Part shown: in pieces, positions 29,794 to 53,014 of the stretch | How positions within the stretch are numbered: the first letter of the stretch is position 1 | How the letters are laid out: each line of letters begins with the position of its first letter | NCBI GenBank assembly: GCA_030390025.1 | Contig: CM059432.1 | Coordinates: forward strand, 72,728,001-72,792,000 | DNA: 64,000 nucleotides | Direction of reading: 5' to 3' | DNA from: Squalus acanthias | Lineage: Eukaryota | The notes under the pieces: generated by a model | Databases searched by the model: none | What the model was told of the DNA's origin: nothing | Seen by the model: only the letters and a program-made list of their open reading frames with translations | Translations under genes and position numbers: made by a program

Positions 29794-30366
29794 AGTCTCC
29801 TGCCATAAATGCAGTGATTTATGGCAACTTATTAGGCTTTCAGATGGCCTTAGTCTAGTTAAAACAGCAGCTTGGATAGTACCTGGCTTACACATCAAAG
29901 CAGTTTTAAGTGTAATATGGCTATTAACCGTTGCTGCCTGACTGCATACTTACTGTTAAAAATAATATACAAATTATGGGCTGTTTTATTTACTCAGTGC
30001 TATCTGTTTACAAAGCAAAGAAATGGCGCACTAGCATTCTGTACCTGATCATTCCTTTTATACACTTCATTGTTCTATATCCTTTGATTATTTACACATG
30101 GTATGGAGTTTTGATTTGACAGTATTCCGAACCGTTAACTCCAGTAAAATTGTGAATCTTGGGATTTCCATATTCTAGCTAATCGTTAGCTATGTATGTT
30201 CTTGACTGGGATGTCATGTAGTTTTTACTCATTTATTTTTGGTTCTGATTATATTAGTACATTTATTCTGTGTAGCCTGCTAATAAGTTTTGAGACTATC
30301 TTTGTCCTTATACACTGTAAAAATGTCTTGTAAGACATCTGAATGCATTTAATTTGATTACATACA

Positions 30367-30372
30367 AATAAA
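30367..30372 (+). terminator. SDCBP: Probable SDCBP polyadenylation signal (3'UTR about 0.6 kb)
   Basis: AATAAA followed by a T/GT-rich tract (atttattgtttttc) after an AT-rich, repeat-free stretch. Confidence 0.7.
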
Positions 30373-31980
30373 GAATCTCGAACATTTATTGTTTTTCATT
30401 ATTTAAAAAAAAAATTTTTGCTTCACTTCCACTCCCTGCTATCACTCACCATTTTCTTCCATCACGCTGCAAGGTAAAATGTTACCACAATATTTGAAGA
30501 TATACAATTGAAATAATGAGTACTTCCTGCCTTTATGATCCTGTTCCTTTTTTTGGGGGGTTCTTTTTAGTGTGTTGTAATATAACACACAAAATATAAG
30601 TATCCTTAACCACTATTAAAATAGTGTTATGAAAACGTGGAATGCAATATCTCTGAAGGCCAGAGTGGATGAACCAATTGTTTAAAATGGAGGTAGATAC
30701 TTGTCAAATAATGGTATTTGAGGGATACAAAGGAAGGATGTGAAAAAGAACGATTTGCATTTATATAGTGGCTTTCATGACCTTGGGATATTCCAAAGCG
30801 CTTTACAGCCAAAGAAGTCCTTCTGAAGTGTAGTCACTTGTAAAGTAGGAAACACGGCAAATAATTTGCGCACAGTAAACTGCTGCACTGAAGTGCCAGG
30901 CAAGAATACGTGCTCAAGACTTGTACCAAAACCATCTGACCATCAGGTAATTTTTCTTGACTCAAGCAGCATAACTCCTGTGCATTGTGGCCTTCAGCCC
31001 AGGGCAGGACCACCTCTGCAGTTTCCTGTCTTTCCACTCTCAGCCTGACTTTAGGGTCAAATTTTAGTCAAACTGGGGGGCCGAGAGCAGCAGCAATGTG
31101 GTGAGTGGGAGCAGCAGCATGAGAGGGGCAGCCAGTAAAGGAGTGAGTGAAATCTGCAGCCTGACCAGACCTTATGCAGTCCAGGAGGATTCTGGCCATA
31201 GTTTCAGGGTATCAATGGGTTATAGGATTACTACTAGTTACAGATAGGATATGGGGCATTACACCTATTATTACCAGTTACAAATATGTAAGTTATTACA
31301 TTACTGTTGGTTATGAGGGAAATCTGATTTTTATTAGTTATCTGTGCATTTTCAATGAGTTACTATTAGTTATTGGTGGAATCAAAGTTCCTCCCACCTC
31401 TTGTTCCCCGAGACTCGCTCCCTCACCCTTGGTTACCCTTCACCTGCTCGTGGGTGGTCTCTGAACTTCTCGCACAACAGCTGCTGGCGCAATACCACAA
31501 GCACAAATACTCAATTACAGGGGACCCAACCTCTAAGGTAAATGCAGTAACATTTACAGATGTCATGTGATCAGATCTCACATGGTCAAATGGTGTGGTC
31601 AGGATGTCACACAATCAATCCTCCAGGAATGCCTCCAGCCAGAATTGGCAACCCTACTGTTAAGTTCAAATAGAGAGTTGTCCTAGTAGCAAATAGTGTG
31701 AATGATCACCAGAATGTTGAACTATGGTCTTCCAAAGAATTAACTATACTCCTATTTTGGTATCATCTGCAAATTTCAACACCACTCCCTGTAGGCCTAT
31801 ACCCAAATCATTGTTATACACAGTGAATAGAAGTGGCCCCAGAACCCTGTGGAACACCACTACCCATGTCCAACCACTCTGGGGGAAAAACTGTCTTGAA
31901 CTCAGACGGTTTTTACCCTTCCAACAAATTTTTAATCCAGTTTACTATCCTCCCCCCTAATTACATTTTAATTCCTAGTA

Positions 31981-34306
31981 CAGGAAACTCTTTGGTATCC
32001 GGCACCGACGGGACCAGGGTGGTGCCGGTTGAATAAAAATTCCGGATGATGGAGAGGGTTATCTACCGAGGCTATTTTTAACAAACAAAAATAAAAAAAT
32101 AAAGAAATGTGCAGTATACAGTAATTGGGTACTCACCTACAGAATGTTGTTAAATGGATGGTGGAAGATGCTTGATTAAGTACAGTACTGCCAGTTGAGG
32201 GTAATCCATAACTCTTTAATTACTTAACAGTAAAACAAAACTTAAATGACTGTATACAGTACTGTAGTTGACTACACTTATTCCAAGTCAACTGGTTCAT
32301 CAGGAATATCCATGCCAGCTGGGTCATCAGGATCATGCAATTCCACAGATTCTTCAGGCACTTCCGCTGCTTCGACTCTTTTGGAAGCTTTCTTAAACAT
32401 GTCCCGGATGTCTGCTTGCTTAGTGGACTCTTGCCTTTTCTGTAGAAACGTGGAATGCAGAATATGGAGTTGCATAACTTCTTGGGCAGAGTAGCAAGGC
32501 TGCCTTTCAGCAAATTGGAGGATTGAAGAAAATCCTTCTGCAGCTTTAGCCCAAGAAATCTTGTTCTCTTCAGAAATCTCATCCTCTTCACTTTCCATCT
32601 CACTTTCCTTTTCTTTCTTTGGATTCAAAACACACTCAATTATTTCATCATCACTTAGCATATGCACAACAGCAACTTCTCTATCTGCATCAACCCACTG
32701 CTTGATATCACTTTCACTGAGGTGACGTAGAGGGTTTGCTGGGCCTACATTTTTCACCATGCCAGCCATTTCTATTATTGTACTCTTCTTGGGACGAACA
32801 TTGAACCCATGAAATTCCTCCTCCTGAAGAAGAACCTTCAGCAAACATTACAGAAGGCCACAATTTGCGCCAGGCTTGCCTCCGAGTGTGACCTTTCACC
32901 AAGTTCCAGGAACATGCAACATTATAGATGGCATCTTTAATACTGTATTCCTTCTGAAATGCGTGAATATTGTCATCTTGGTTTATCAGTTTACGTAGGA
33001 AGTCTTTCTTGTAATGACAGTACAGATTTTGGATAACGCCCTGGTCCATGGGTTGTATGAGAGAAGTTACATTTGGTGGCAAATAAATGGTGAAAATATT
33101 TCCCGAAACCAACTCGGATTCATGCGGATGGGCTCTACAATTATCAAGCAATAAAATGCATTTGCTATCTTCAGGTTTCCCTATTTTACGGAAATGTTCC
33201 CTCACAGATAAAACAAAAATATGATTGAACCAATAGGAGAAGATTTCCTTATCCATCCAAGCATTTTTTTGATCTTTGTACTCAACAGGTAAGTGCCTCA
33301 CATTTTTAAATGCACGGGGATTTTTATACTTCCCAATAACAAGAAGTTTAACCCGGTGTGATCCAGCAGCGTTCGCACATGTTAGCACGGTTACACGATC
33401 TTTATTTTTCTTGTAACCTGCAGTATTAGCCTCACTAGCCCCAGCAAGCGTTGATTCTGGCAAAAACCTCCAAACCAAGCCAGTTTCATCGGCATTATAT
33501 ATCTGCTGGTGACAAATCATGTTGCTGCACAATCCGATTGAAATAATCGCAGTATTCTTCTGCGGCGTCGTGATCAGCTGATTTCTTCTCCCCGGAAATA
33601 TCGAGTCGTCGTATCCCGTGCCGTAACTTGAAGCATATTAGCCATCCCTCGGAGAAAGCACACTTGTCAGTGAGCTCTATCCTTTCGTAGAAATCCTTCG
33701 CTTTCTCGATTAGCATAGGTCCGGAAAGTGGAACACCCTCTGAACGCTTAAGAGAAAACCACTCATAAAGCACGGTATCCAGCTCTTCAAGCTTAGGCTT
33801 ACGAAGCATGCGCCGTTTCTCTACACTCTTAGATGTCTCCGAGCTTGAATAAAACTTGAGCAGCTTATCCTTCTGCGATTTGATGTCGTAGATTGTTGAC
33901 AAACCAATTTTGAATTCATTCATAATGTTGATACGCTTCTCTCCCCTTTCTAGTCGTTGGCATATCTCGATTTTCTGTTTTAAAGTTAACACCACTCTCT
34001 TCCTTTTGCTTGGACCAGCTTTTGGGAATTCCATAATCCAAGATGGGGGAGATAATTCCCGATAAAGATGGAGAGACACACAGTAAAATGGCGGATCAGA
34101 AGAGACTACTGGCAGCGCGGGAGAATCAGACTCCTGTTATTGTAGTGGCACTTTGGAGAACTACCCCCACTGACTAACTCGGCGTTTGCGGGAGACTCGG
34201 ACTCGGCAACATTGCCGGTTATTGGGGAGGAGTTTTCAGAGTATGAATTTTGCTGGTTAATAGAGAATTCCAGATATTTAGGTGCCGTTTAAACAAGAGT
34301 TTCCTG
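31981..34306 (-). mobile_element. Full-length Tigger/pogo (Tc1/mariner superfamily) DNA transposon, 2326 bp
   Basis: 26-bp TIRs CAGGAAACTCTTTGGTATCCGGCACC / CAGGAAACTCTTGTTTAAACGGCACC (21/26 match), TA on both flanks (31979-80, 34307-08), transposase inside. Confidence 0.93.
32278..34034 (-). pseudogene. Tigger transposase (HTH-psq, CENP-B HTH, DDE_1), two frameshifts
   Basis: Three overlapping ORFs (33495..34079, 32714..33532, 32278..32844). Motifs [37 protein letters not shown]; 32 residues between the last two Asp (DD32D). Shifts near 33505 and 32825. Confidence 0.92.
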
Positions 34307-34359
34307 TAATCTCCGATGTGGTACTGTGTCTAAGGCTTTCCAAAAGACCATGTACAACA

Positions 34360-35610
34360 ATATCAACTTGTATTTATATAGTGCATTTAATGTTTTAAAA
34401 TGTCTCTAGGTGCTTCACAGGAGCGTTATCAAAGAAATTTTGACACCGAGCCACATAATATTCGGGCAGATGGTCATAGAGGTAGGTTTTAAGGAACGTC
34501 GTAAAGGAGGAAAGAGAGGCGGAGAGGTTGAGGGAGGGAATTCCAGAGCTTAGGGCCTTGGCAGCTGAAGGCACGGCCGCCAATGGTGGAGCAATTGAAA
34601 TTGGGGATGCTCAATAGTTCAGAATTGGAGGAATGCAACGATCTCGGAAGGTTGTAGGGCTGGAGGAGATTACAGAGATAGAGAGGATGAAAATGAGGAT
34701 GAGAATTTTAAAATCCAGGTGTTGCTTAACTGGGAGCCAGTGTAGGTCAGCGAGCACAGGGGTGATGGGTGAACGGGAGTTGGTGTGAGTTAGGACACGG
34801 AGCAGCAGAGTTTTGGATTACCTCAAGTTTACGGAGGGTAGAAAGTGGGAGGCCGGCCAGGAGTGCATCGGAATAATAAAGTCTAGAGGTAACAAAGGTA
34901 TGAATGAGGGTTTCTGCAGCAGATGAGCTGAGGCAGGGGTGGAGTCAGGTGATGTTACAGAGATGGAAATAGGCGGTCTTGTGATGGCGCAGATATGTGG
35001 GCGGAAGCTCATCTCGGGGTCAAATATGACACCAAGATTGCGAACAGTCTGGTTCAGCCTCAGACTGTTGCCAAGGAGAGGGATGGAGTCGATGGCTAGG
35101 GAACAGAGTTTGTGGTGGGGACTGAAGACAATGGCTTCGGTCTTCCCAATATTTAATTGGAGGAAATTTCTGCTCATCTAGTACTGGATGTCGGACAAGC
35201 AGTCTGACAATTTAGAGACAGTGTTGGGGTCAACAGAGGTAGTGGTGAGGTAAAGCTAGGTGTCGTTAGCGTACATGTGGACACTGACGCTGTGTTTTTG
35301 GATGTCGCCGAGGGGCAGCATGTAAGTGAGAAATAGGAGGGGGCCAAGGATAGATCATTGGAGGACACCAGAGGCAATGGTGCGGGAGCGGGAAGAGAAG
35401 CCATTGTAGGTGATTTTCTGGCTACGACTGGATAGATAAGAATGGAACCAGGCGAGTGCAGTCCCACCCAACTGGACGATGGTGGAGTGGTGTTGGAGGA
35501 GGATGGTGTGGTCAACCGTGTTAAAGACTTCAGACAGGTTGAGAAGGACGAGGAGGGATAGATTACCACTGTCACAGTCACAGAAGGTGTCATTTGTGAC
35601 TTTGATAAGA
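34360..35610 (-). mobile_element. 5'-truncated L2-clade LINE
   Basis: Same family as 56729-57780 (MSRNFLQLNIGKTEAIVFS); tail caacttgtatttatatag near 34365. Confidence 0.85.
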
Positions 35611-36002
35611 GCTCATAAGGAGGTGCTCTTCCCTTCTTCAGGAAGGAAGAAGCCTCCTCAGTAAACGAAGGCTATGTGGCTCTAGGTGGGCCAGGAGGTG
35701 AATTCTCTGTCTTTGATCCGCAGAACCTGGCTTCAATGCTGCAAAAGATTTCATGACCTTCTGCGCACTGGAAAAGTGAGTATGACTTTCCCATCACCCT
35801 CAATCTGATGCCCTTTGCCTCTCCTCACCAGCACTCAGCTTTAGCAACCTCTTCCTCCACATCCCACTTGACACTGACATCCCTGCACCCTTACCCATTC
35901 CCTCTCTCTCTATAGAAACATAGAAGATAGGAGCAGGAGTAGGCCATTCAGCCCCTCGAGCCTGCTCCGCCATTCAATGAGATCATGGCTGATCATCCAA
36001 AT

Positions 36003-38801
36003 TCAGTACCCTGTCCCTGCCTTCTCTCCATATCCCTTGATCCCTTTAGTTTTAAGAAATATATCTAACTCCTTCTTGAATATATTTAATGAATTGACCT
36101 CTACTGCCTTCTGTGGTAGAGAATTCCACAGGTTCACCACTCTTTGGGTGAAGAAATTCCTCCTCATCTCAGTCCTAAATGGCTTACCCCTTATCCTTAG
36201 ACTGTGACCCCTGGTTCTGGACTCCCCGGCCATCGGGAACATCCTTCCTGCATCTAGTCTGTCTAGTCCTGTTAGAATTTTATAAGTTTCAATGAGATCC
36301 CCTCTCATTCTTCTAAACTCCAGTGAGTATAAGCCCAATCGACCCAATCTCTCCTCATACGCCATTCCTGCCATCCCGGGTATCAGCCTGGTGAATCTTC
36401 GCTGCACTCCCTCCATGGCAAGAACATCCTTCCTCAGATAAGGCGACCAAAATTGCACACAATACTCAAGGTGTGGTCTCACCAAGGCCCTGTACAACTG
36501 CAGCAAGACATCCCTGTTCCTGTACTCGAACCCTTTCGCTACGAAGGCCAACATACCATTTGCCTTCTTAACCGCCTGCTGCACCTGCATGCTTACCTTC
36601 AGCGATTGGTGCACAAGGACACCCAGGTCTCATTGCACTTCCCCTTCTCCCAATCTATTGCCATTCAGATAATAATCTGCCTTCCTGTTTTTGACACCAA
36701 AGTGGATAACCTCGCATTTATCCACATTATATTGCATCTGCCATGCATCTGCCCAATCACCCAACCTGTCCAAATCATACTGGAGTTTCTCTGCATCCTC
36801 CTCACGGCACACACTCCCACCCAGCTTTGTGTCGTCTGCAAACTTGGAGATATTACATCCAATTCCATCGTCCAGATCATTAATATATATTGTGAATAGC
36901 TGGGGTCCTAGGACCGATCCCTGCGGTACTCCACTAGTCACCGCCTGCCACTCGGAAAAAGACCCATTTATTCCAACTCTTTGTTTTCTGTCTGCCAACC
37001 AGTTCTCTATCCAAGTCAATACCTTGCCCCCAATCCCATGTGCCTTAACTTTACATGCTAATCTCTTATGCGGGACCTTATCGAAAGCCTTCTGAAAGTT
37101 CAAATACACCACATCCACTGGTTCTCCCTTATCCATTTTACCAGTTACATCCTCAAAAAATTCCAGTGGATTAGTCAAGCACGATTTGCCTTTTGTAAAT
37201 CCATGTTGACTTTGTCCGATCCTGTCACTGTTTTCCAAGTGCTCTGCTATTACATCTTTTATAATGGACTCTAGCATTTTCCCCACTACCGATGTCAGGC
37301 TTACTGGTCTATAATTCCCCGTTTTCTCTCTACCACCTTTTTTGAATAGTGGGGTAACATTAGCTACCCTCCAATCCATGGGTACTGTTCCAGAGTCTAT
37401 TGAATTTTGGAAGATGACCAGCAATGCATCTACTATTTCTAGGGCCACTTCCTTAAGTACCCTAGGATGTAGATTATCAGGCCCTGGGGATTTATCGGCC
37501 TTCAATCCCGTCAATTTCCCTAACACTATTTCCCTACAAATACTGATTTCTTTCAGTTCCTCCTTCTCATTAGACCCTATGTTCCCCGACATCTCTGGGA
37601 AGTTATTTGTGTCCTCCTTTGTGAAGACAGAACCAAAGTATGTATTTAATTGGTATGCCATTTCTTTGTTCTCCATTATCAATTCCCCTGATTCTGACTG
37701 CAAGGGACCTACGCTTGACTTCACCAATCTTTTTCTCTTCACATATCTATAAAAGCTTTTACAGTCAGTTTTTATGTTCCCTGCAAGCTTACTCTCATAC
37801 TCTATTTTCCCCCTCTTAATTAATCCCTTTGTCCTTCTTTGCTGAATCCTATACTGCTCCCAATCCTCAGGTTTTCTGCTTTTTCTGGCCAATTTATATG
37901 TCCTTTCCTTGGATCTTATGCTATCCCTAATTTCCTTTGTTAGCCACGGTTGAGTCACCTTTTTTGTTTTATTCTTATGCCAAACTGGGATGAACAAATT
38001 CTGTAGTTCATTCATGCGATCTTTGAATGCTTGCCATTGCCTCTCCACCATCAACCCTTTGAGTGACATTCCCCAATCAATCCTACCCAACTCGCGCCTC
38101 ATACCATCGTAGTTTCCTTTATTTTAATTCTGGACCCTAGTCTCTGAGTCAACTACTTCACTCTCCATCTTAATGAAGAATTCGATCATATTATGATCGC
38201 TCCGACCCAAGGGACCTCGCACAACAAGATTGCTCATTAATCCTTTCTCATTACATAATACCCAGTCTAAGATGGCCTGATCTCTAGTTGGTTCCTCGAC
38301 ATATTGGTCCAGGAAACCATCCCGTATACACTCCAGGAATTCCTCCTCCACAGTATTGTTACTAATTTGGTTAGCCCAATCTATATGTAGATTAAAGTCG
38401 CCCATGATAACTGCTGTGCTCTTATTGCACGCTTCTCTAATTTCCCTTTTAATGCCATCCCCAACCTCCGTATTACTGTTTGGAGGTCTATACACCACTC
38501 CCACTAGCGTTTTCAGCCCCTTGGTATTTCTCAGTTCTACCCATACAGATTCCACATCATCAGAGCTAATATCCTTCCTTACAATTGTGTTAATCCCCTC
38601 TTTAACCAGCAATGCTACCCCACCTCCTTTTCCTTTTTGCCTATCTTTCCTGAATATTGAATACCCCTGTATGTTGAGTTCCCAGCTTTGGTCACCCTGG
38701 AGCCATGTTTCCGTAATCCCAATCAGATCATATTCGTTTACCTCTATTTGCGCAGCTAATTCATCCACCTTATTACGAATGCTGCTCGCATTAAGACACA
38801 A
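36003..38801 (-). pseudogene. CR1 ORF2p (APE endonuclease + reverse transcriptase), single frame with two point nonsense codons
   Basis: ORFs 38124..38801, 36630..38102 and 36003..36614 share one frame; stops are TAA at 38124 and TGA at 36630. Motifs [34 protein letters not shown]. Confidence 0.93.
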
Positions 38802-38992
38802 AGCCTTCAGGCTTGTTTTTTTAACGCTCTTAGACCTTTTAGAATTTTTTTTTTACTGTGGCCACGTTTGATTTAAACCCTTGCTTTCTCTGACTGACAC
38901 CTTTGTTTTTTTCCTTCCTGACTTTTGCTTCTATTCTTGTTTCCCTTTCCTCTGTCTCCCTGCTCAGGTTCCCAACCCCCTGCCATTTTAGT

Positions 38993-39928
38993 TTAAACCC
39001 TCCCCCAGAGCACTAGCAAACACTCCCCCAAGGACATCGGTCCCAGGTGCAAACCGTCCGATTTGTACTGGTCCCACCTCCCCCAGAACCGGTTCCAATG
39101 TCCCAGGAATTTGAATCCCTCCCCCTTGCACCATTCCTCTAGCCACGTATTCATCTGAAATATCCTTCTATTTCTACTCTGACTAGCACGTGGCACTGGT
39201 AGCAATCCTGAGATTACTACCTTTGAGGTCCTATTTTTTAATTTATCTCCTAACTCCCTATATTCAGCTTTTAGGACCTCATCCCGTTTTTTACCTATAT
39301 CGTTGGTACCTATATGCACCACGACAACTGGCTGTTCACCCTCCCCTTCCAAAATGTTTTGCAGCCGCTCTGAGACATCCTTGACCCTTGCACCAGGGAG
39401 GCAACACACCATCCTGGAGTCTTGTTTGCGGCCGCAGAAACGCCTATCTATTCCCCTTACAATAGAATCCCCTATCACTATAGCTCTACCCCTCTTTTTC
39501 CTCCCATCCTGTGCAGCAGAACCACCCCTGGTGCCAGGAAGTTGGCTGCTGCTGCCTTCCCCTGATAAGCCATCCCTCTCAACAGTATCCAAAGCGGTAT
39601 ATCTGTTTGAGAGGGGGATGTCCACGGGGGACTCCTGCACTACCTGCCTGCGCCTACTACTCTGCCTGGTGGTCACCCATTCTCTTTCTGCCTGTGCAGC
39701 CTTTACCTGCGGTGTGACCAACTGGTTAAACGTGCTATCCACGAGGTCCTCAGCATTGCGAATGCTCCAGTATGTATCCATTCGCAGCTCCAGCGCCGCA
39801 ATGCGGTCTGCCAGTAGCTGCAGCTGGATACACTTCCCGCACACGTGGTCGTCAGGGACACAGGAAGTGTCCCCGATTTCCCACATAGCGCAGGAGGAAC
39901 ATAGCACGGCGCCGAGCTGTGCTGCCAT
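38993..39928 (-). pseudogene. CR1 ORF1p: N-terminal zinc finger, coiled coil and SGNH esterase; small deletion frameshifts the last ~20 codons
   Basis: CSSC...HVCGKC, IVIGDSIVRG, HIGTNDIG, DGLH motifs. The expected ending VLGGVFASALGEGLN* is in another frame after DGLHL. Confidence 0.9.
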
Positions 39929-42207
39929 GACTTACCCTTTAATTAACTGAACTTAAATTATATCAAATGAATCCCACCAATTATACTATAATTAAATGAT
40001 ATAGGGCCCTTGTTTACCAACTGTCCCCGCTACACCACAGAGACCCTAGAAACTATAAACCAAAAAATTTAAGTTTGGAAAATGGAGAAAAGGAGAAATA
40101 CTCACCAACCAATCACCTGCTTTCCGGTGATGTCACACTTTGATTATTTTTTACTTCTCTCTCTCCCGCTCTGGGGGCTCAGATTGGCAAGCCTACCTGG
40201 TCGCCGCTGCCTCTTTTATCTGCTCCGCCTCGCCACAGCCGCTCCACCCAGGTCCGCCGCCTCTGTGGGCCTACCTGGTCGCCGCCGCCTCTTTTATCTG
40301 CTCCGCCTCACCGCAGCCGCTCCACCCAGGTCCGCCGCCTCTGTGGTCACATTCACCAAACTATTCGACTATGTAGCCCTCACACTCCCTATCGCTGTGT
40401 TGCTATGAAAACAACTTACAACACACAGGATAGGCCCTTGGTCTTGCCACCTCACTCCATCTTTGTCTCCTTCTAAGCATCTATGAGATGGATTCTATAA
40501 ACTCAATCATTCATTCTCACTCAAACTCCACTTGTCTCCATCATTGCAGGAAAAGAGAGCTCACAATAAGTGGGAAAGAGCGAGGACCAGAGGAGGGCCA
40601 CCCTCAGTAGCCCAGCTCACCCCTTGGGAGGAGGTGGCCCTGGAGATCGTGGGAGTCGATGAGGATGCGCAAGTGGGGGACGGGCAGATGGGCGCAGCAG
40701 AGCAAGCCGGTGACAGAATAGTTGTTCATCGCTCTCATTGACATTGCATGAGTCGCTGATAATGATTCTGAAGCTCTAACAGTTGGACTTATGATCATCT
40801 GCAATATGCATTGTGCATGTCACCTTGGACTCACATCTCTGACTCTTTCCTTTACTCCCCCACAGGACCATCGCAAGCACCCGTCCCCACTATCCAGGAG
40901 GAACAGACTGAGGCTCAAGACTCCTCAGAGGAAGCTGAAACCTCTGAGGGCGCAGCGTCAGTAGAATTCAGCCAGCCCAGCTCCAGCGCAGAGACTCACA
41001 CCTCGGTGGGACCCTCGTGAGATAGAGTAGTGTTGTCACCTGGTGTATCACAGCTCACAAGTGAGCCTCAGCAGATGGTGGAGACAGGGAAAGCAGTGGA
41101 GAGTCCTCGTCGGAAGGCGCAGGACTCTCTAAGCTCGGCTCAGCTGCATGTCGACACTCTGCCTCTGGGTCCATCCAGAAGAACAGCGGTGTTGGAACTC
41201 CAGGAAGAGGTGCAGGAGTCTCTGGCAGGTTTTGTCTCCAGGGTCACTGTGAGTGTAGAGCGAATGGAGGAGTCCATCGCTAACATGAGCAGAGCCTTTG
41301 TTGAGGCAGTGGCGCATGAACGCATCACCACAGAAAGGATGGCAACCTCCGTGGAAACGATGTCTACCTCCATGGTAAGGATGGCAACGGTACAGGAGAG
41401 GATGGTAACGGCCATGGAGGAGCTTACTCGCCAGGGTATGGAAAACATGGTATTTGTTCAGAATAGACTGGCATTTCTTGAGCGATGTTCAGCTATTGAG
41501 CAATCAAGCCAGACCTTCACGCAAGTCCTTGGCAGTAGGACTTCAAGTACAGAAACGGTTCCTCATGTCCCCCCTGAAGTGCAGCAAGGTGCTGTCAAGC
41601 CACTTGCTAGTTCTGAGGTGGGGCAGACCCATGAGAGGGATGTTGGTGGCAGAGAACAAGGAAGTGGGGGCTCCTCTCCAAGCGCTCACATGACCATGAC
41701 ACTGCAAAGTCCTTGGTCAGAGCCCCACCAGAGTCCCCACCCATCTGAGATCGGCGTCTCAACCCCAGCACAGCCGCAGGAGCAGCAGACTGTTGGCGAG
41801 CCCTCACAGGCTCGCAACCCCAGAAGACGCCCGCCCAAGGTGTCGAGACAGGAGCAGCAACAGAATGAGCAAGGGGCCTCCACATCTGCTGATGCCAAGG
41901 GGGAACCACCACGTAGAAGCGCGTGTAAGAGAAAGAAACTGCACAAATAGTCACAAGGTTTGTCACTTGGGTGAAATGTTATGTTTAATTCTGATAAGCC
42001 ATCAGTAGCTTCTTGTAAATAAAAAATCTGATGGCTACTGCTGCAGTTGTGGCCTGTGTCATATCGTTATTGGGACTGCCACATTGTGGGCTTAGGAGGA
42101 GTAGCAGCTGTCAGAATGATGGTCAGAATGCTAGGAAGATGATGGTTTCTGGCCATTAACGATGCTGTGGCAAGAAGCTGCGAGGCAAAAGTAATTGCTT
42201 GGCTAGG

Positions 42208-42365
42208 CTAGGCAAATCTGGCCAAGATGAGTGCGTTTCTTGCATCCCGGCCAGCAATGGTCTCGTGTATTGCCGCCGCTGGTTGATGCACCTCTGCCAG
42301 ATGTTCGTTTTCTCTCCTCCTCCTCATCTGAGGAGGATATGTGAGGAGCCTCTTGACAGGAACGG
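42208..42365 (-). pseudogene. C-terminal remnant of Harbinger (HARBI1-like) transposase
   Basis: Ends ...IAGRDARNALILARFA*, resembling Harbinger nuclease C-termini; no catalytic domain is retained. Confidence 0.55.
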
Positions 42366-42501
42366 GATCTGAAAACTCACAACTGGGAAAATTCGGCGGA
42401 GGCGGGATGGAGGCAGGATCGGGCCCACCCGCCATTTTTTGCTATTTTAACTCCCCACACACCACCAATCCCGCCTCCACGGGCCGGTGAAAATCGAGCC
42501 C

Positions 42502-45500
42502 ACTGTATCTGAATGCACGAAGCATTCATAATAAGGTAGACGAATTAACCGCGCAAATAGACGTAAACGGATACAATATAATTGCGATTACGGAGACATG
42601 GCTGCAGGGTGACCAAGGCTGGGAGCTGAATATCCAAGGATATTCGATATTTAGGAAGGACCAGCAAAAAGGAAAAGGAGGTGGGGTGGCGTTGTTAGTA
42701 AAGGATGAGATCAGAGCATTAGTGAGAAAGGATATTGGCTCAGAAAATAAAGATGTAGAATCAGTCTGGGTGGAGCTAAGAAGCACCAAGGGGCAGAAAA
42801 CATTGGTGGGAGTTGTCTATAGGCCTCCAAACAGTAGTGGTAATGTAAGGGATGGCATCAAACAGGAAATTAGAGATGCATGTAACAGTAATCATGGGTG
42901 ACTTTAATCTACATATAGACTGGCCAAACCAAATTAGCAATAATACTGTGGAGGATGAATTGCTGGAGTGTGTACAAGATGGTTTTTTAGACCAGTATGT
43001 TGAGGAGCCAACTAGGGAACAGGCTATCCTAGATTGGGTATTGTGTAATGAGAAGGGGTTAATTAATAATCTTGTTGTGCGGGGTCCTTTAGGGAAGAGT
43101 GACCATAACATGATAGAATTCTTCATTAAGATGGAAAGTGAAGAAGTCCAATCCAAAACTAGGGTCCTAAATCTAAACAAAGGAAACTACGAAGGTATGA
43201 GGAGTGAGTTGGTTGTGATAGATTGGGGAGCTTCATTAAAAGGCATGACGGTGGATAGGCAATGGCTAACATTTAAGGAACGAATGCATGAATTGCAACA
43301 GTTATACATTCCTTTCTGGTGCAAAAACACAAAAGGAAAAGCAGCCCAATCATGGCCTACAAAAGAAATTAAGGATAGTAATAGATCCAAAGAAGAGTCA
43401 TATAAAGTTGCCAGAAAAAGTAGCAAGCCTGAGGATTGGGAGCAGTTTAGAGTTCAGCAAAAAAGGACCAAGAGATTGATTAAGAGACGAAAATAAAGTA
43501 TGAGAGTAAACTTGCAAGGAACATAAAAGCGGATTGTAAAAGCTTCTACAAGTATGTAAAAAGAAAAAGATTAGTGAAGACAAATGTAGGTCCCTTACAG
43601 TCAGAAACGGGAGAATTTATAATGGGGAACAAGGAAATGGCAGAGCAATTAAACAAATACTTTGGTTCTGTCTTCACGGAAGAGGACACAAATAACTTCC
43701 CAGAAATGCTAGGGAACCAAGGGTCTAGTGAGAAGGAGGAATTAAAGGAAATTAGTATTAGTAAAAAAATAGTGCTGGAGAAATTAATGGGACTGAAAGC
43801 CGATAAATCCCCAGGGCCTGATAATCTGCATCCGAGAGTACTAAAAGAGGTAGCCATGGAAATTGTGGATGCATTGGTTGTCATCTTCCAAAATTCTATA
43901 GATTATGGAACAGTTCTTGCAGATTGGACGGTGGCAAATGTAACCCTACTATTTAAAAAAGGAGGGAGAGAGAAAACAGGGAACTACAGACCGGTTAGCC
44001 TAACATCAGTAGTAGGGAAAATGCTAGAGTCTATTATAAAGGATGTGATAACAGGACACTTAGAAAATATCAACGGGATTAGACAAAGTCAACATGGATT
44101 TATGAAAGGGAAATTGTGTTTGACAAACCTATTAGAGTTTTTTGAGGATGTAACTGCTAGAATAGATAAGGGAGAACCAGTGGATGTGGTGTATTTGGAT
44201 TTTCAGAAGGCCTTTGATAAAGTCCCACATAAGACGTTAGTGTGCAAAATTAAAGCACATGGGATTGGAGGACTGGCATGGATTGAAAATTGGTTAACAG
44301 ACAGGAAACAGAGAGTAGGAATAAATGGGTCTTTTTTGGGGTGGCAGGCAGTTACTAGTGGGGTACCGCAGGAATCAGTGCTTGGGCCCCAGCTATTCAC
44401 AATATACATCAATGATTTGGATGAGGGAACCAAATGTAATATTTCCAAGTTTGCTGATGACACAAAACTAGGTGGGATCGTGAGTTGTGAGGAGGATGCA
44501 AAGAGGCTTCAAGGTGATTTAGACAAGTTGAGTGAGTGGGCAAATACATGGCAGATGCAGTATAATGTGGATAAATGTGAAGTTATCCACTTCGGTAAGA
44601 AAAACAGAAAGGCAGAGTATTATTTCAATGGTGATAGATTGGGAAATGTTGATGTGCAGAGGGACCTGGGTGTCCTTGTACACCAGTCACTGAAAGCAAA
44701 CATGCAGGTGCAGCAAGCAGTTAGGAAGGCAAATGGTTTGTTGGCCTTCATTGCAAGAGGATTTGAGTACAGGAGCAAGGATGTCTTACTACAGTTATAC
44801 AGGGCCTTGGTGAGACCATACCTGGAGTACTGTGTGCAGTTTTGGTCTCCTTACCTAAGAAAGGATATACTTACCATAGAGGGAATGCAGCGAAGGTTCA
44901 CCAGACTGATTCCTGGGATGGCAGGACTGTCATATGAGGAGAGATTGGGTCGACTAGGCCTGTATTCACTAGAGTTTAGAAGAATGAGAGGGGATCTCAT
45001 TGAAACGTATAAAATTCTGACAGGGCTAGACAGACTGGATGCAGGGAGGATGTTTCCCCTGGCTGGGGGGTCTAGAATGAGGGGTCACAGTCTCACGATA
45101 CAGGGTAGGACATTTAGGACTGAGAAACATAGAAACATAGAATCTAGGAGCAGGAGTAGGCCATTCGGCCCGTTGAGCCTGCTCCACCATTCAATACGAT
45201 CATGGCTGATCATCCAAATCTCGTACCCTGTCCCTGCTTTAATCCCCACAGTACACATATCCCACCCTACCCCTGTAACCCCACGTATTTAATTCCCCCC
45301 TAACATATCCCATCCTATCCTCATAACCCCACATATTTAATCCACCCCTAACACTAAGGGTCAATTTATCATAGCCAATTCAACCTAACCCGCACATTTT
45401 TGGACTGTGGGAGGAAACCGGAGCACCCGGAGGAAACCCACGCAGACACGGGGAGAATGTGCAAACTCCACACAGACAGTCACCCGAGGTCAGATTCGAA

Positions 45501-45823
45501 CCCGGGTCCCTGGCGCTGTGAGGCACCAGTGCTAACCACTATGCCACCGTGTTGCCCAATGAGATGAGGAGAAATTTCTTCACTCAGAGGGTGGTGAACC
45601 TGTGGAATTCTCTACCACAGAAGGCAGGTGGAGGCCAAGTCACTGAATATATTTGAGGAGGAGATAAGATAGATAGGTTTCTAGACACAAAAGGCATCAA
45701 GGGGTATGGGGAGAGAGCGGGAATATGGTATTGAGATAGAGGATCAGCCATGATCATATTGAATGGCGGAGCAGGCTCGAAGGGCCGAATCGCCTACTCC
45801 TGCTCCTATTTTTCTATGTTTCT
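42502..45823 (+). mobile_element. CR1 LINE, ORF2 portion (APE+RT) with 3' tail; interrupted by a SINE at 45126-45557
   Basis: Starts at LYLNARSI; ORFs 42686.., 42852.. and 43574..45292 with KAFDKVPH and KFADD; tail ttttctatgtttct near 45810. Confidence 0.93.
45126..45557 (-). mobile_element. Full-length HE1-type V-SINE (tRNA head, V-domain, CR1-derived tail)
   Basis: A box tggcatagtgg, B box ggttcgaatc, V-core tgtgtggagtttgcacattctccccgtgtctgcgtggg, CR1-like 3' end with (ttctatgt) repeats, TGAGA duplication at 45121-25 and 45560-64. Confidence 0.88.
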
Positions 45824-46449
45824 AAAGCAGGTGGGTGTAATACCGAGATATTCTTGCCTTGTCTTACTGGATTGTGTCAGGTCTTCTGTTTTCCAGTCAT
45901 CCTACCAAGTCTGGTGGGTTTATGATAAAACACCGCCACACTCAGTGAACCAGGTACTTTGGATTAGAAGGGGTAAAATTCACTTTCAGCAGGACACAAA
46001 ATGGGCAGTAGCAGATTATACACCCAACCCTATTTTCCTTTCTATTGACAATGTGTATAATGGGAGAATCCGCTACCACATGTTTTGCATCCCACTTAAG
46101 AGGGACTTCATATTTCCCTCACTTTTTGCAGTGAAATTGCTAAGTGTCTTCTCAAAGTTTTCTCTATTCTTTACTTAACGTTTTAAACAGGTACTGGACA
46201 AGACTTTTGCAGCTAGCATTTAATTGGCTTTGTCATTGTGTCATTTTTATAGTAGATTACAGCTGGCACTAAACAAAAATACAGGTTCAGGAGTGTCCTT
46301 TATAACTCACATAACATAAGTAATGTTAAGTTAATACTTCATTGCTATAACGAGTAATTTCTAGGCTGTACTGTCAAGCTCTCAAAAAGACACTTTGGGA
46401 GAGAGACTCAACATCGCTTCACCTGTTTTTTGGGTGAAAAATAAATGGT

Positions 46450-47228
46450 TCTCCCCATCCCACAGCACCTTCCCGTGCAAGCGCAGGAGATTCAATACCT
46501 GCCCTTTTACCTCCTCCCTTCCCACCGTCCAGGGTCTCAAACACTCCTTCCAGGTGAAACAGCAATTTACTTGTACTTCTTTCAATTTAGTATACTGTAT
46601 TCGCTGCTCACGATGCAGTCTGCTCTACATTGGGAGATCAAACGCAGATTGGGTGATCGCTTTGCGGAACACCTCCGTTCAGTTCGCAAGTGTGACCCCG
46701 AGCTTCCTGGCACTTTAATTCTCCGCTCCACTCCCACTCTGACCTCTCTGTCTTTGGCCTCCTACACTGCCCCAATGAAGCTCAACGTAAGCTCGAAGAA
46801 CAGCACCTCATCTTTCGATTAGGCGCTTTACAGCCTTCCGGTCTCAACACTGAATTCAACAATTTCAGCTCATAACCACCACTCCAATTTTTTCAGACAG
46901 CAATGATTCTGCTATTGCCATTTACACCTCCTCTAGACCCATATTTGGTTTCTTTACTTGTCTCATTAACATCCCCTTTTGTCATTTAATCTTTCCTGTC
47001 CTCCACCCAATCACAGATCTTCCCTTTTGTTCTTTGCTCGCCTCCCCCCTTTCCCTGCCCCTGCACTTGCTTAAAATCTGTTACATCGCTAACCTTTTCC
47101 AGTTCTGACGAAAAGTCATCAAACTGAAACGTTAATTCTGTTTCTTTCTCCACAGATGCTGCCTGACCTGCTGAGTAATTCCAGTATTTCCTTTCAGATT
47201 TCCAGCATCCGCAGTATTTTGCTTTTGT
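46450..47228 (+). mobile_element. Penelope-like element 3' remnant: GIY-YIG endonuclease fragment plus terminal repeat
   Basis: CKRRRFNTC...FTCTSFNLVYCIRCSRCSLLYIG / KRRLGDRFAEHL, then a terminal segment shared with 17703-17906. Confidence 0.85.
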
Positions 47229-48339
47229 CCCCTGGAAGTGTGTTGGCTGTAAAATTGAAAACTGGCAACTTTTAGGTGTGGAGGGTGCCCATCTGAAAAG
47301 GGCATTAGGACTATGATTTGCATATGCAAGGCACCTAACATTGGTTGTAGGATCCAGATTGAAAGTAGTCTACAAATGGGCAGAGCTTGTGCCCGAGGCT
47401 TACCGCTGGAGGCTGCTCAAAAAACAGCTGGAAAACGTTTAAATAGTTACATTTCTGTGGAGCTAGGAGCAGGAATGCTCCTCCTAGCTTAACCTCCAAG
47501 GTTAATGGGCGCCCGCAATAAGAGCGCAGGCAGCACCAGTTTTTGGTGCTGCCTGCTGATTTAAATGAGAAGTCGCACAACACCAGGTTATAGTCCAACA
47601 GATTTATTTAAAATTACAAGCCATTTTTGTCCACCCCAGTCCAACCATCTCCACATCATGATTTAAATGAGGGCAGTGCAGAAGCTCCCGTGCAACATGC
47701 TCTTTCCGGCGGTAAAATCAGCAGGAGGCAGAAGGTCGGGTCTAAAGGATCTGTGCGGCGTTCTCAGGAGACCGCGATTTATGAAAGTGAACTTCTATGT
47801 TTCCAGTTATGTTTCTCAGTTGACATAGAAAGTATGCAAGATAAATGAAAGCGTCAAAATAGACTAAACTGTCACATTTTAAAGAATGCAACCAATATTT
47901 CCGATTCTACTCCCTAGAATACAAATAAAAGCAAGCTATTCTTTTAATACACAGGCATAGTGAATAAGCTTTATTACAGAGGTTTTTCACTAAGTCTTTT
48001 TAGGAGTGTATCTTTCTGGAACAATGTATCTAGCCCAGCAGTTCATTCTATCCGGCCCGCTGGAGCTCGAGCTGCACATTCGTCTGAGTCTTACGAAGGG
48101 AGGCCCCGAGAGCTCACTCAGGGTTACTGCGGCCTGGGAATAGGCTGCGACCCTGAACTGGCACTATTAAAAAAAGCTGTCGGGACTGCTGCTATATGTC
48201 TGATGCCGATCTGCTTCCCTTGTGTGTCTCAGATACGGCCTAACGTCTGTCTGTGGCTCTCTCCTGCGAACCACTTTTCTTAAACCCGCCAAATCTGCCA
48301 CTCATCGCTGGCTGGTGGGGGCACTGCTGCGCGTGCGCA

Positions 48340-49056
48340 CTGGACGTTCCTCCTCCATCAAGTCATGGCTGCTCATCTCGACGACTCTTAGTTTTACCAG
48401 AGACCGGCGCTGTCTCTTTCCTCTCATGGAACTCAGTCCCACACTCCCAGCCCTGAACTCAGTCCCACACTCCCAGCCCTGAACTCAGTCCCACACTCCC
48501 AGCCCTGAACTCAGTCCCACACTCCCAGCCCTGAACTCAGTCCCACACTCCCAGCCGTGAACTCAGTCCCACACTCCCAGCCCTGAACTCAGTCCCACAC
48601 TCCCAGCCCTGAACTCAGTCCCACACTCCCAGCCCTGAACTCGCCCCACACTCCCAGCCCTGAACTCAGTCCCACATACCCAGCCCTGAACTCAGTCCCA
48701 CATACCCAGCCCTGAACTCAGTCCCACACTCCCAGCCCTGAACTCAGTCCCACACTCCCAGCCCTGAACTTGCCCCACACTCCCAGCCCTGAACTCAGTC
48801 CCACGCTCCCAGCCCTGAACTCAGTCCCACACTCCCAGCCCTGAACTCGCCCCACGCTCCCAGCCCTGAACTCAGTCCCACGCTCCCAGCCCTGAACTCA
48901 GTCCCACACTCCCAGCCCTGAACAAACCCCACACTGAAGCCAGACGACTCAGTTTTATCTAAGAGATTGGCGCTGCGTCCACGGTGCCTAGTGTACGATG
49001 GCAGGAGAGTTCTCATCGCCGTCTTAGACACAGGAGTGGATCCCGGAGTTCCAGGT
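48340..49056 (+). pseudogene. TPP2: Decayed TPP2 (tripeptidyl-peptidase II) exon-1-like fragment, internally duplicated and split by a minisatellite
   Basis: 48994-49056 translates [21 protein letters not shown] (TPP2 as recalled: [21 protein letters not shown]). 48400-48429 gives ETGAVSFLSW and 48963-48980 gives EIGAAS (TPP2: ETGAASFL). ATG at 48365; frameshifts and stops present. Confidence 0.8.
48429..48919. repeat. 26-bp minisatellite (gaactcagtcccacactcccagccct) x19
   Basis: Direct tandem units with no spacers; three 25-bp variant units; 491 bp total. Confidence 0.97.
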
Positions 49057-50566
49057 AATGCCATTGTAGTTCAGGCCTTGCGAAGCCTTGGGCTCCAGTA
49101 CTCAGCACACTAAAAAGAGAACACCTCTCGCGTCGGAAGCCCCGCAGGCTCGAGTCACGGCTTTCAGTACAACATGTAATTGATCGATCAATCATTTCCT
49201 TCATTTAATAACGGAATATTTTACACTACATTTTGTGTATTTAAGATAGCATCTGACTACTATCTGAATTTATGTTTATGCAATGTTCCATCTAATTTTT
49301 TTTCATGCGCGGACCCTTTAAATTTGCTGCAGGGCCGCGCATGCACAGTATCTCTTCCAGTGGCAGTAACTGGTGAGCGGCCTGCGCGGGACCTCACGAC
49401 TCGCGATTGGTGCGTAGCTGTGCACCTTGCACATTGGTGTGCGGCCCTCAACAGCTCACCAAAACTTGCTAAGTGGCCCTCCAACCCAAATAATTGCCCA
49501 CCCCTGCTCTAGAAAGTACCCGGATAAGCATTTTGAAAGCGCAACGGTGTACTGGAATTGGGAGATTTGTTTGTAATACTGGATGTCAGAGCCGGCACAG
49601 GTGATCCATGATTCCTCCCTGAATAGACCAAGAGATGTGAAAAGTTTACTGGATACCCTGAACACTGAATATCAATACCAGTAAATGCAGACGAACAAAT
49701 TCCTTCAGAAACAGGAAAATGTCTTTGGGTCTCCTTTAATTGAAAATGTAATAAGCTCACACCTGTTACTTCAGAGGGACAGGATGCATATTCAATAACG
49801 TTTGTAACAATAACAGTAAACAGTTACAAAGCCCAAATATCATTTAATTTCCAGTTTACTGACACAATTGGAAGCGACAGTAATGGATCAGGCCTTTAGA
49901 TGCAGTACAAGTCCCCCAGACGGTTTGTAACCACATGCTGTTCTGTACACATTACGTGCCAGAACTCACTGACCTGCTCCGGTTGAGTGCTGGCATCTAC
50001 AGTGTATAGAATAGGCCTTCAATCTGATGCGTTTCTGCAGCAATCACCATGAGCCACCTCACTGGACTGGACACACACTGCAGTTATTGAAGACTTTGGC
50101 GGAGATCGATCTATGATCGCCGCCGCTTTCTCCCGGCTCTACACGCCGTTAGCGGCTGCACACACAGGCGTGCTTTGGAGAGGGCGGCAAGAGGAGCGGC
50201 GATGTCCAAAATCACTGAGTGTGCGGCAATTAAAATACTTGCGGCGAGCGCAGGCAACGGCAGCGCTGCCGACCTGCCCATTATGGCGGCCTCAGTGTTC
50301 CGTGCCGGAAGCGAGGCGGCCGTCATTTTTTCTTCAAAACCGGCCTTAACAGACGGCGTTAAAGATTCCAATTTCTAGGCCGTAGTAACCACACTACTTA
50401 ATTACCAGAATGCTGATTAAACCTGTGGTCATGAGTTGTTGTCAAGTTTGGGATGATTATCAGATCGGTGAATTAGCTACATAAAATGCAGAATAGTAAA
50501 TTTATTTATATTCCAGTTAGAAGAATAAACAACACAGGATACTTCTTGAGGTGCATCAGAATACAG

Positions 50567-50572
50567 TTTATT
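50567..50572 (-). terminator. NSMAF: Probable distal NSMAF polyadenylation signal (3'UTR about 2.3 kb, ~50545-52891)
   Basis: tttatt on + (AATAAA on -) with a downstream GT-rich element on - (tcctgtgttgtttatt). The 50.5-52.9 kb stretch is AT-rich and free of recognisable repeats. Other AATAAA at 50501 and 52718. Confidence 0.55.
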
Positions 50573-52891
50573 TTCATGTGCATGGTGTCCATATAATTAG
50601 CTATGGTCAGCTCCATCTAGTGCACAGCCTTAACTGAAGTACTTGGTTTATATAATTTTTAAATTTAAGAAAAAATTTTAACTAGGAAAAGTGTATGTCA
50701 TTGATATTATACGTGCAAAAATATATTGCAATTTTTAAATTTAAACTATGCTCCCACACCAATGAGAAATTTCAAGTACTGCAGAACAAAATGAAATATG
50801 AAATTATACAAATTTAATCAAAACACATTCAATATATATTGTTAAATTATGACTGATACTTGTTTCTTTACGGTTTACAATAATGTAATATTTGGTGTGA
50901 TATAACAAACACCTAAGCATGTCCACAAACAACTTTAAAGAACAGAATAAAAACTTCCTTTTCACTACAAGTTATGCATCTCCAAAAACACCATAAACCC
51001 ATGAGTTCTGAATGATGTAAATCAGCAGCAATAAAACATTTGTGCAAGTTAAAAATTTCCCATTTCCACATTCATTTTACTTTCCCTTCTCTGTGGTGAC
51101 CTTTCTAACTCTAACTGGGAATACTACACACAAATATTTTGGTGCTCTCAAGTCAAATATGCTAGCAAATAAAAATTGGTTTTAATGCACCGTCTCACCT
51201 TGAGCAAGAAATACACTTGCAGAGTTTACGGTGTGGAAGATTCACAAGACAGGATGCGCACAGCCGGTGTAGCTCAGCAGATGGACAGGGCCTAATATTT
51301 ACCACAAATAAACCAGTTAAATTATCCTTGCAATGAACAAATTCTATCCTTTTCCTATGGAGAACTTTAAAAATAATTTTTCATATTAATTTGTGCCAAA
51401 TGGTGCAGAGATTTAACTGACATTCCACAAGAAATTAGACAATTAGGAGACAAGAGCTACCTAAAACTATGGTGGGAGGGGGAAGTAGAAACAGATCTCC
51501 AGTATAAGGGTTCTTACTACTTAAAACAAATCTAATAGTTGGCCTGGATTTCACAACATGGCGCCAAAATAATGTTCAGGAAACAGGGAGGGAGACATTC
51601 TCACGTTTGTGATTCGATATCCAATTTTAGTGACAGTTTGTGCTTTGCAATGCTGCTGTGCAGAACAGAATCTAAAATATAAATGTAAATCTGCTGTCAT
51701 CTTGAATATATAACCCATTAGTAGATGAACCAGAGTACTTAAAAATTCCAAACTGTACCCACACATCCCAAAATTTTTCTTTACAATAACTCTACAGATA
51801 TAAAAAAAGATTAACTAGTATAATTTCAGTTGACAAGAAATACTTTTGATGCCACATGCAGTAAATTTTGTTTTGTGATGAAATACTCCCCAGAATGACA
51901 GAGTTTACTCAGCAACATCGGTAACAACAGCATCCATCCACAAAATCATTTACCCAGAGGACTTACTCACTAGCAAAGTTTTTATCTTCTACACTACCTG
52001 AAATACTTTACGTAACCTTTAATTTTTCTTCAGTAACCATCACAGATGCATATGCCCTCAAGTAATTTCTTACAGCTACTAAAGGGTATCAAGGCACAAT
52101 CATAATTTTAAAAAACTATTGCGGACAACCAACCATATTCACATTAACTGTGTCAGAACATGTGTTAAACTTCACAATTTATCTAAAGATAAAAGCACTT
52201 GTGTATTCTGAAGGTACATCAGTTTTCATAGACACACAATTTGGTCTGGCATGAAAGGGCTCCAGTCCACTGAACTGAGAATGAGTTACTAATGAAAGCA
52301 AAACCTTAGCTCAGCTCAGGTTCAGAATTCTTCTATGACAGATGATTCTGCTACTCATGACTAATCTTAATTCAACCCAGTTGACTAGACTCACACACAT
52401 TCTTAATACTAGATGAACCTCACAAACTTATGATAAATGCATGTTACTATATCTTGTACTTGATGCAGAACACTTGACTATACAGCAACTAAAATGCAAT
52501 AAATATCTTTAACAGTACAAAATTTGGTCAAATCCAAATAAAATTAGTTCTATTTCCCCATGGTTTACTATTTTTTCCAAGATCAGAAACACTCAAAAAT
52601 ACTTTGCTCCTGCGCTGCACAGTGACACAGCATATTGGAAGGACCAATGCAAGATCTCGCAAGCTATCAAGACACGGCCAAATGTTTCCAGACTGCTGAA
52701 TTCTCAGCTTTGGGAGGTTTATTGAATGGAGAGAAGTATTTCCACAGGGAGCAGGAGAAGTAGGTTAATCTTACTGTCTTAATGACTACTTATAGATTGT
52801 GGACAATGCAGCTTTAAAACAGTTCTTGCTTCGTGCTATTTAAAAAAAAGTGCTCGAAGCTGAAGTCTCGAAGGAATTCAGAGAAAGGCAC

Positions 52892-53014
<123 letters not shown>

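Follow-up and report, generated by a model that had tools for sequence, protein, structure and literature searches.

A split first-exon relic of TPP2 in Squalus acanthias DNA very probably belongs to a multi-copy repeat family

Introduction

How does the 5' end of a subtilase gene come to lie, split by a minisatellite, between SDCBP and a WD40-repeat gene? The question is raised by a 64,000-nucleotide stretch of Squalus acanthias DNA (the window; all positions given here are those of the window), which carries at 48036-49276 a segment related to exon 1 of TPP2, a gene of the subtilase S8 family. An initial annotation, made from the letters of this DNA, had presented the segment as a lone relic. 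We report that it is very probably one decayed member of a multi-copy repeat family in which exon 1 of TPP2, its splice donor and the sequence that follows the donor form a single unit. First-exon capture is known as a kind of event: a high-copy capture of a first exon with its donor is documented in bats (sections of PMC4224331), and small cases are documented in Xenopus (sections of PMC12001565). A TPP2-carrying family in sharks is unexpected. In listings of the open literature, a scope that lay outside Repbase and Dfam, neither a repeat carrying TPP2 nor gene capture in sharks was described, and there is no mention of sharks in portions of PMC11417382.

Results

The relic, all parts of which are on the + strand, is laid out as the initial annotation had described it: an ATG, a first copy of part of the exon, about nineteen 26-bp repeats, a second copy, and a catalytic Asp codon, GAC, at 49027 were all confirmed, the repeats by Tandem Repeats Finder (TRF). 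Copy 1 (48365-48428) opens with an ATG at 48365 that reads MAAHLDDS before meeting a stop after 8 codons; it contains frameshifts and ends at approximately codon 28. The peptide ETGAVSFLSW, which had been read as following the start segment, is present from position 48391, but in a different frame from that of the ATG. The minisatellite (48429-48923; TRF period 26, 19.2 copies, 94% matches) contains units of 25 bp at 4 of its 19 full positions, and no occurrence of its unit was found elsewhere in the window with up to 6 edits allowed. Copy 2 (48943-49054) restates some 35-45 bp of copy 1, continues through YDGR and the stretch with the catalytic Asp codon, and ends with CAG.

Alignment of the two copies from starts at 48380 and 48943 gave a score of 33, the second-best site in the window scoring 21, and this score was reached by none of 2000 dinucleotide shuffles (shuffle maximum, 27). 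Also, the end of copy 1 (48397-48426) resembles the unmatched end just before 48982 in one other member of the family described below (21 of 30 letters identical, by eye count), and the two halves therefore appear to be a local duplication around the minisatellite. Since the FPxHG codons of other TPP2 proteins are missing from both copies, the duplication would postdate that deletion. The mismatches between copies 1 and 2 suggest that the duplication is old, with the units of the array more homogeneous. At 48920-48951 the final, degenerate unit of the minisatellite merges into the start of copy 2, with ACTCAGT common to both; this is a possible microhomology for the birth of the array.

To the 5' side of the ATG lies a GC- and CpG-rich region (48036-48364), a putative captured promoter or 5' untranslated region (UTR) whose left end is marked by a change of composition only. 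Its GC content is 0.56 and its CpG observed/expected ratio (o/e) 0.73, versus 0.32 and 0.30, respectively, for 47780-48035. The CpG-rich stretch noted earlier is thus real, but modest: 48036-48428 has a GC content of 0.56 and an o/e of 0.76 versus an o/e of 0.39 for the whole window, and an o/e of at least 0.70 occurs in 25 of 170 GC-rich segments of 330 bp. No second copy of 48036-48364 was found within the 64 kb, and no Rfam match was found for it, the Rfam search giving one chance-level small nucleolar RNA match.

Comparisons of three kinds bore out the earlier assignment of the piece to TPP2 rather than to another subtilase. In a PDB search (7 matches), Drosophila TPP2 was matched with E=0.0066 and the next subtilisin with 1.1. 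A hidden Markov model (HMM) made from 24 metazoan TPP2 proteins matched copy 2 with E=1.5e-7, and none of the other 4082 six-frame pieces scored below 1. The protein of another animal that reads through TPP2 exon 1 (P0010) matched with 76% identity and E=7.4e-4; it ranked 8 of 8, and the 3 that were inspected of the 7 above it were all unrelated repetitive proteins. Copy 1, taken alone as protein, gave no significant match (E=26-33), its assignment to TPP2 resting on DNA likeness. Pfam gave only E=0.15 for the 25-amino-acid piece and nothing for the 63-amino-acid frame, for which a protein search likewise left none of 279 candidates with E<=0.01; a search that used the region without the conserved motif yielded 1 of 11 candidates. 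There was no vertebrate TPP2 among the named rows of the 120 matches listed out of 316, and two metagenome pattern scans gave 0 matches. Atlas searches brought up WD40 clusters of a generic kind and, at 0.92, a cluster of subtilases; we treat these as leads only. As judged from these sequence comparisons, the relic derives from TPP2; it resembles residues ~1-55, including the catalytic Asp motif, and differs from the protein in that only ~4% of it is held in the window, frameshifted and stopped.

The absence of exon 2, claimed earlier, was likewise confirmed within the window by the TPP2 HMM and by an HMM of the exon-2 start, whose best match in the window (E=2.2) was not near the locus. Nothing of TPP2 beyond approximately residue 53 was found in the 64 kb, neither the His and Ser catalytic regions nor any other domain. 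A functional TPP2 paralogue was considered and rejected: the reading frame stops after 8 codons, there is no Asp-His-Ser triad in an open frame, and there are no later exons. The window copy codes for nothing useful. As a separate observation, many full-length TPP2-like proteins with TPP2 Pfam domains carry the labels of Planctomycetota or Verrucomicrobiota genome bins.

The exon piece ends at a GT splice donor (49055-49056) that is homologous to the TPP2 exon-1/intron-1 boundary. The other family copies read GGA CTC CAG and then GTAATG (DPGAQGLQ, then GT); full-length TPP2 proteins read PGAPGLQ, then xTxDG; and in P0010 the TPP2 homology ends directly after PGLQ. Because the family copies and P0010 both break at the Gln codon, CAG|GT (49052-49056) is the true exon-1 boundary, in agreement with the donor proposed initially. 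Copy 2 of the window has lost 8 nt at 49049 relative to other copies. The final PG of DPGVPG, taken earlier for part of the TPP2 match, proved to be an out-of-frame coincidence, as other copies, with the 8 extra nt at 49049, read G-A-Q-G-L-Q. A spliced retrocopy was rejected, since GT follows the Gln codon in the family copies and no exon 1-exon 2 junction is seen. The earlier preference for DNA-level copying therefore holds as against a retrocopy of spliced mRNA, but the retained intron is no proof of it, because unspliced RNA could have served as template.

To survey other copies, public contigs were aligned to the 3' flank of the relic (48921-49300, 380 bp) at 80% likeness in four runs: X2 (whole-genome, organism A), X12 (whole-genome, organism D), X6 (small, organism B) and X7 (RNA-like, organism A). 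The contig counts thus come from three species labels, which may differ from the window's own species, and the comparison covers the 3' flank only; organisms C and E, whose shares of the stretch were small, do not enter the counts. We observed 473 matching contigs in X2, 502 in X12, 27 in X6 and 7 in X7, with coverage from approximately 48982 to 49276. Likeness to the window copy of 90-95% formed the largest class (237 of 473 in X2, 221 of 502 in X12), the four likeness classes of X2 holding 41, 78, 237 and 117 contigs. The majority letter at 49032 was carried by 49 distinct contigs in X2 and 41 in X12, and that at 49089 by 58 and 63, respectively. Summed depth peaked at 5012 (X2) and 1480 (X12) over the exon, stood at 8541 and 2549 just past the donor and reached 13272 and 6605 within the AT-rich tail; long single contigs among those listed had median depths of 11.4 and 10.2.

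Across the contigs, the exon, the donor and the approximately 220 bp that follow them run colinearly. Contig records 1, 2, 3, 9, 18 and 19 (for example, 48983-49159) bridge the exon and the post-donor part, and records 6 and 10 (49063-49279 and 49051-49283) bridge the post-donor part and the tail; therefore, the three are one unit. The post-donor family sequence (49055-49276), putatively intron 1 and/or vector, is CpG-rich to ~49165 and then AT-rich. Homology had been thought to stop about where exon 1 ends; this was not the case, as the family likeness reaches at least 49276 in many contigs under all three species labels. By the contig sequences there are at least tens of family copies and probably 100 or more, and the relic of the window is very probably a member of this family. 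No exact window copy was seen in the four runs, no run covering 48921-48972 and no listed piece spanning the stretch.

Several contigs merit separate description. Copies from X6 have ~20-30 extra letters at window positions 49154-49161, which suggests either subfamilies or a deletion in the lineage of the window copy. Among the 7 contigs of the RNA-like run, which show presence only, none was at least 95% alike to the window copy, and no RNA run was found among the listed holders of 47900-49500 (best share, 0.36). Record 31 of X7, a 911-nt contig with a depth of 161 versus 2-14 for the other 6 contigs, matches 49217-49276; it carries the AT-rich family tail, and its match covers no part of TPP2. 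It may stem from an abundant transcript that includes family sequence; alternatively, it may indicate that the tail comes from the vector. Record 26 of X7 ends exactly at the CAG donor. We rejected this end as a sign of splicing, because this point, 30 letters beyond 49032 and its variant, is also one at which a contig graph would merge. The same record reads GAC AGC, with a CpG-decayed codon, and is therefore not clearly the parent TPP2.

The family copies show CpG-biased decay. In the 38 of 68 rows on which the variant counts rest, minor variants were present in 25, and 14 of these 25 were CpG transitions, versus a CpG share of 9% of sites (p=4e-9). Given the known deamination of CpG, the bias implies that the family is methylated and decaying neutrally. 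At 13 listed sites the window copy departs from the family majority, in 4 cases through the loss of a CpG, and it has several small deletions; the losses amount to 4 of its 16 CpGs (p=0.056 versus other sites).

At its 3' side the window copy is truncated. The same loose end at 49276 was seen in 4 of 4 runs, where the other copies continue and the window copy breaks off. Later truncating insertions occupy 49281-49506 (no strand assigned): a MITE-like piece (miniature inverted-repeat transposable element), related to 25740-25782, then a hAT-like right end at 49494-49506, then CTCTAGAA; the MITE-like and hAT-like family names are our assumption. The hAT-like right end (49506) was considered as the close of the element itself and rejected, as it has no left end and the other copies diverge at 49276. 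The continuation of those copies past 49276 starts with AATAAA in 2 of 4 runs and with GATAAA in the other 2. No poly-A was seen within 30 letters past 49276, and a 20-nt motif of the continuation had 0 matches (<=3 mismatches) in the window, including its many LINE (long interspersed nuclear element) pieces.

Discussion

We favor, with a probability of roughly 45%, the reading that TPP2's 5' end was taken up and amplified by a non-autonomous DNA transposon. Under this reading, TPP2 exon 1, its donor, the following sequence and probably the promoter would have been captured in a shark ancestor; the captured piece would have been amplified and dispersed by transposition; and one copy would have inserted between SDCBP and the WD40 gene. 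That copy would then have decayed through small deletions and CpG loss, undergone a local duplication of ~45 bp with the minisatellite between the halves, through slippage or template switch, and been truncated at 49276 by the later insertions. As to the vehicle, a rolling-circle (Helitron-type) element is our tentative first choice, and an element with terminal inverted repeats (TIRs) is the more doubtful of the two.

We prefer a DNA transposon because of the likeness of this family to HelibatN3 and to the Helitron captures of Xenopus. That the window copy lies far from any other TPP2 sequence in the window also speaks for it. HelibatN3 holds NUBPL's promoter, 5' UTR, exon 1 and intron 1 in 2745 copies (sections of PMC4224331), and bat Helitrons of this kind trap exons and drive transcripts (sections of PMC4778049). 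It is like the present family in that a gene's 5' end, including exon 1, its donor and some of intron 1, was captured and reached high copy number. It differs in gene and lineage, and no Helitron ends were found at the window locus. The corresponding row of the bat supplement (PMC4224331) marks the NUBPL fragment '-', and TPP2 has 0 occurrences in the main text and 4 supplement files of that paper (file 1 was outside the scope). In Xenopus, according to sections of PMC12001565, the exons that Helitrons capture are mostly those at the 5' end, and Helitrons have a link with minisatellites. Heli1Xen1 shares the bias to 5' fragments of coding sequences (17 of 19); the minisatellite tie belongs to another Helitron family in the same paper. 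Heli1Xen1 differs in having tens of copies at most (armc5.L, 17), and TPP2 is not among its captures (PMC12001565). Animal Pack-TIRs, for which hAT is the commonest carrier, are nearly all single copy, with four multicopy cases in reference genomes (sections of PMC8277862). They resemble the present case in holding a host fragment inside a DNA transposon, but no TIR pair was found at the window locus.

A number of observations weigh against a DNA transposon. We found no TIR pair and no target-site duplication around the captured piece. A hAT left end was not found in 30000-48430, where scores of 26-29 equaled background, deletion of the left end being possible. The canonical Helitron end, a hairpin about 11 nt ahead of CTRR and then T, is absent from 47600-49600 in this copy truncated at 49276. 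For the elephant shark, one survey lists 0 Helitron consensus families and 0 Pack-TIRs (PMC8277862 supplement), and according to a review its genome is dominated by non-LTR elements (LTR, long terminal repeat; sections of PMC5381603). The contigs carry no positions, so that dispersed and tandem copies look alike in them, and the CpG counts draw on 38 of 68 variant rows. Depth increases from the exon to the tail in X2, X12 and X6, which alignability could explain. Finally, raw exon depth ratios of 145-440 are not copy numbers, and overlap of short contigs perhaps inflates the summed depth 2-3 fold.

One structure in the CpG-rich region could be a remnant of a rolling-circle end. A DNA hairpin at 48119-48155, followed 8 nt later by CTAT|T (48119-48168, + strand), is a candidate bypassed terminator lying 200 bp before the ATG. 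Its folding is stronger than expected (z=-4.34; 1 of 200 shuffles fold equally well), and it ranks 4 of 848 relaxed CTR[AGT]T sites, in a window where 19 loci fold at -13 kcal/mol or better. Being non-canonical and found post hoc, it is a weak lead. ATC triplets are too common to inform on a Helitron 5' TC end.

The alternative that survives best, a possible but less likely one, is LINE-driven: reverse transcriptase would have copied, or switched onto, unspliced or intron-1-terminated TPP2 RNA, and the chimera would have been retrotransposed repeatedly in trans. The product would be an element resembling a SINE (short interspersed nuclear element) with a protein-gene head. The rise in depth toward the 3' end fits 5'-truncated retrotransposition, with alignability as a confounder, and AATAAA opens the continuation past 49276 in half of the runs; the window, moreover, is full of frames that we take to be CR1/L2-like. 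Yet the other half of the runs read GATAAA, no poly-A follows in the 30 letters past 49276, the continuation motif is without a match among the window's LINE pieces, and ~330 bp of CpG-rich sequence lie upstream of the ATG. Template switching by LINEs gives retrocopies, chimeric or unspliced, that are as a rule single events joined to the 3' end of a LINE. They resemble the relic in joining an exon to the start of an intron with no further exons, and they differ from it in that LINE 3' end, none of which was seen at the window locus.

It is rather unlikely that the TPP2 5' end was amplified in tandem or segmentally, either in units like those of a macrosatellite or as part of segmental duplications, leaving the window with an orphan copy. 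The position-free contigs agree with such an origin, as does the failure to find transposon ends in the window. The broad spread of likeness (41/78/237/117) and the independent CpG decay of the copies are unlike a homogenized array, and the shortness of the candidate family sequence in the window, only ~1.2 kb, also speaks against it.

A proposal that can be combined with any of these origins, and to which we give a still lower probability, is that the relic acts as an orphan promoter or first exon, with a transcript converging on the 3' end of the WD40 gene ~1.45 kb away. The CpG o/e of 0.73-0.82 on both minisatellite flanks, an ATG in good context, the intact GT donor and an NRF1-like motif at 48328-48339 (+ strand; one mismatch to what we take to be the NRF1 consensus, with 4 such matches in the window) are consistent with it, as are the transcripts driven by HelibatN3 copies (sections of PMC4778049). 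Against these stand the open reading frame that ends after 8 codons, the many repeat-derived segments that equal this CpG level, and the CpG-biased decay both of the family and of the window copy, whose CpG losses (4/16, p=0.056) point mildly to germline methylation. The window copy is most likely inert, and probably debris. A one-off DNA copy that took in the promoter of TPP2 together with exon 1, such as a patch left by repair, would fit the finding of only one copy inside the 64-kb window, but the hundreds of divergent contigs that share exon, donor and tail under three species labels contradict the lone relic of the initial annotation and make such an origin highly improbable, unless the window's own species lacks the family.

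If the family is as we propose, the range of gene-fragment capture would come to include the cartilaginous fishes, through a TPP2-headed repeat present in several sharks. A vehicle not yet annotated would be indicated, and promoter/donor modules would be available ready-made in large number. Such a family would be missed by repeat libraries from which protein matches have been removed (as in PMC10468316), and its copies would confuse the mapping of reads to TPP2 exon 1. We think it unlikely that the family is a shark-wide mobile set of hundreds of portable cassettes of TPP2 promoter, ATG and donor, with a part of them used as exon traps or as alternative first exons. The boldest version, which shares that low standing, would be a LINE-mobilized, SINE-like element that transcribes itself from an RNA polymerase II protein-gene 5' end, used as its head in place of a small RNA.

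Other features of the window

The neighbor to the left is SDCBP, as first stated: its coding exons lie at 4513-29793 (+ strand) and match syntenin-1 with E=6e-31. To the right, on the - strand, the last exon of a WD40 gene (stop at 52892-52894) and its 3' UTR occupy 50501-52987, poly-A signals lying at 50501 and 50567. The WD40 exon named earlier as that of NSMAF is thus present; the gene name itself we use only as an assumption.

Between these genes lie several further elements. Three overlapping long frames at 32278-34136 (- strand), ~2.5 kb past the SDCBP stop, resemble a frameshifted transposase, presumably of the pogo/Tigger type. Two long, little-broken LINE copies, which we take to be CR1-like, are at 36003-39931 (- strand) and 42491-45292 (+ strand); the former retains ORF1-like, endonuclease and reverse transcriptase frames. 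An open frame of 309 codons at 41021-41950 (+ strand) resembles shark transposon-associated frames. Immediately to the left of the relic, 47560-47621 matches 19828-19889 at 95%, as a young repeat piece within an older element.

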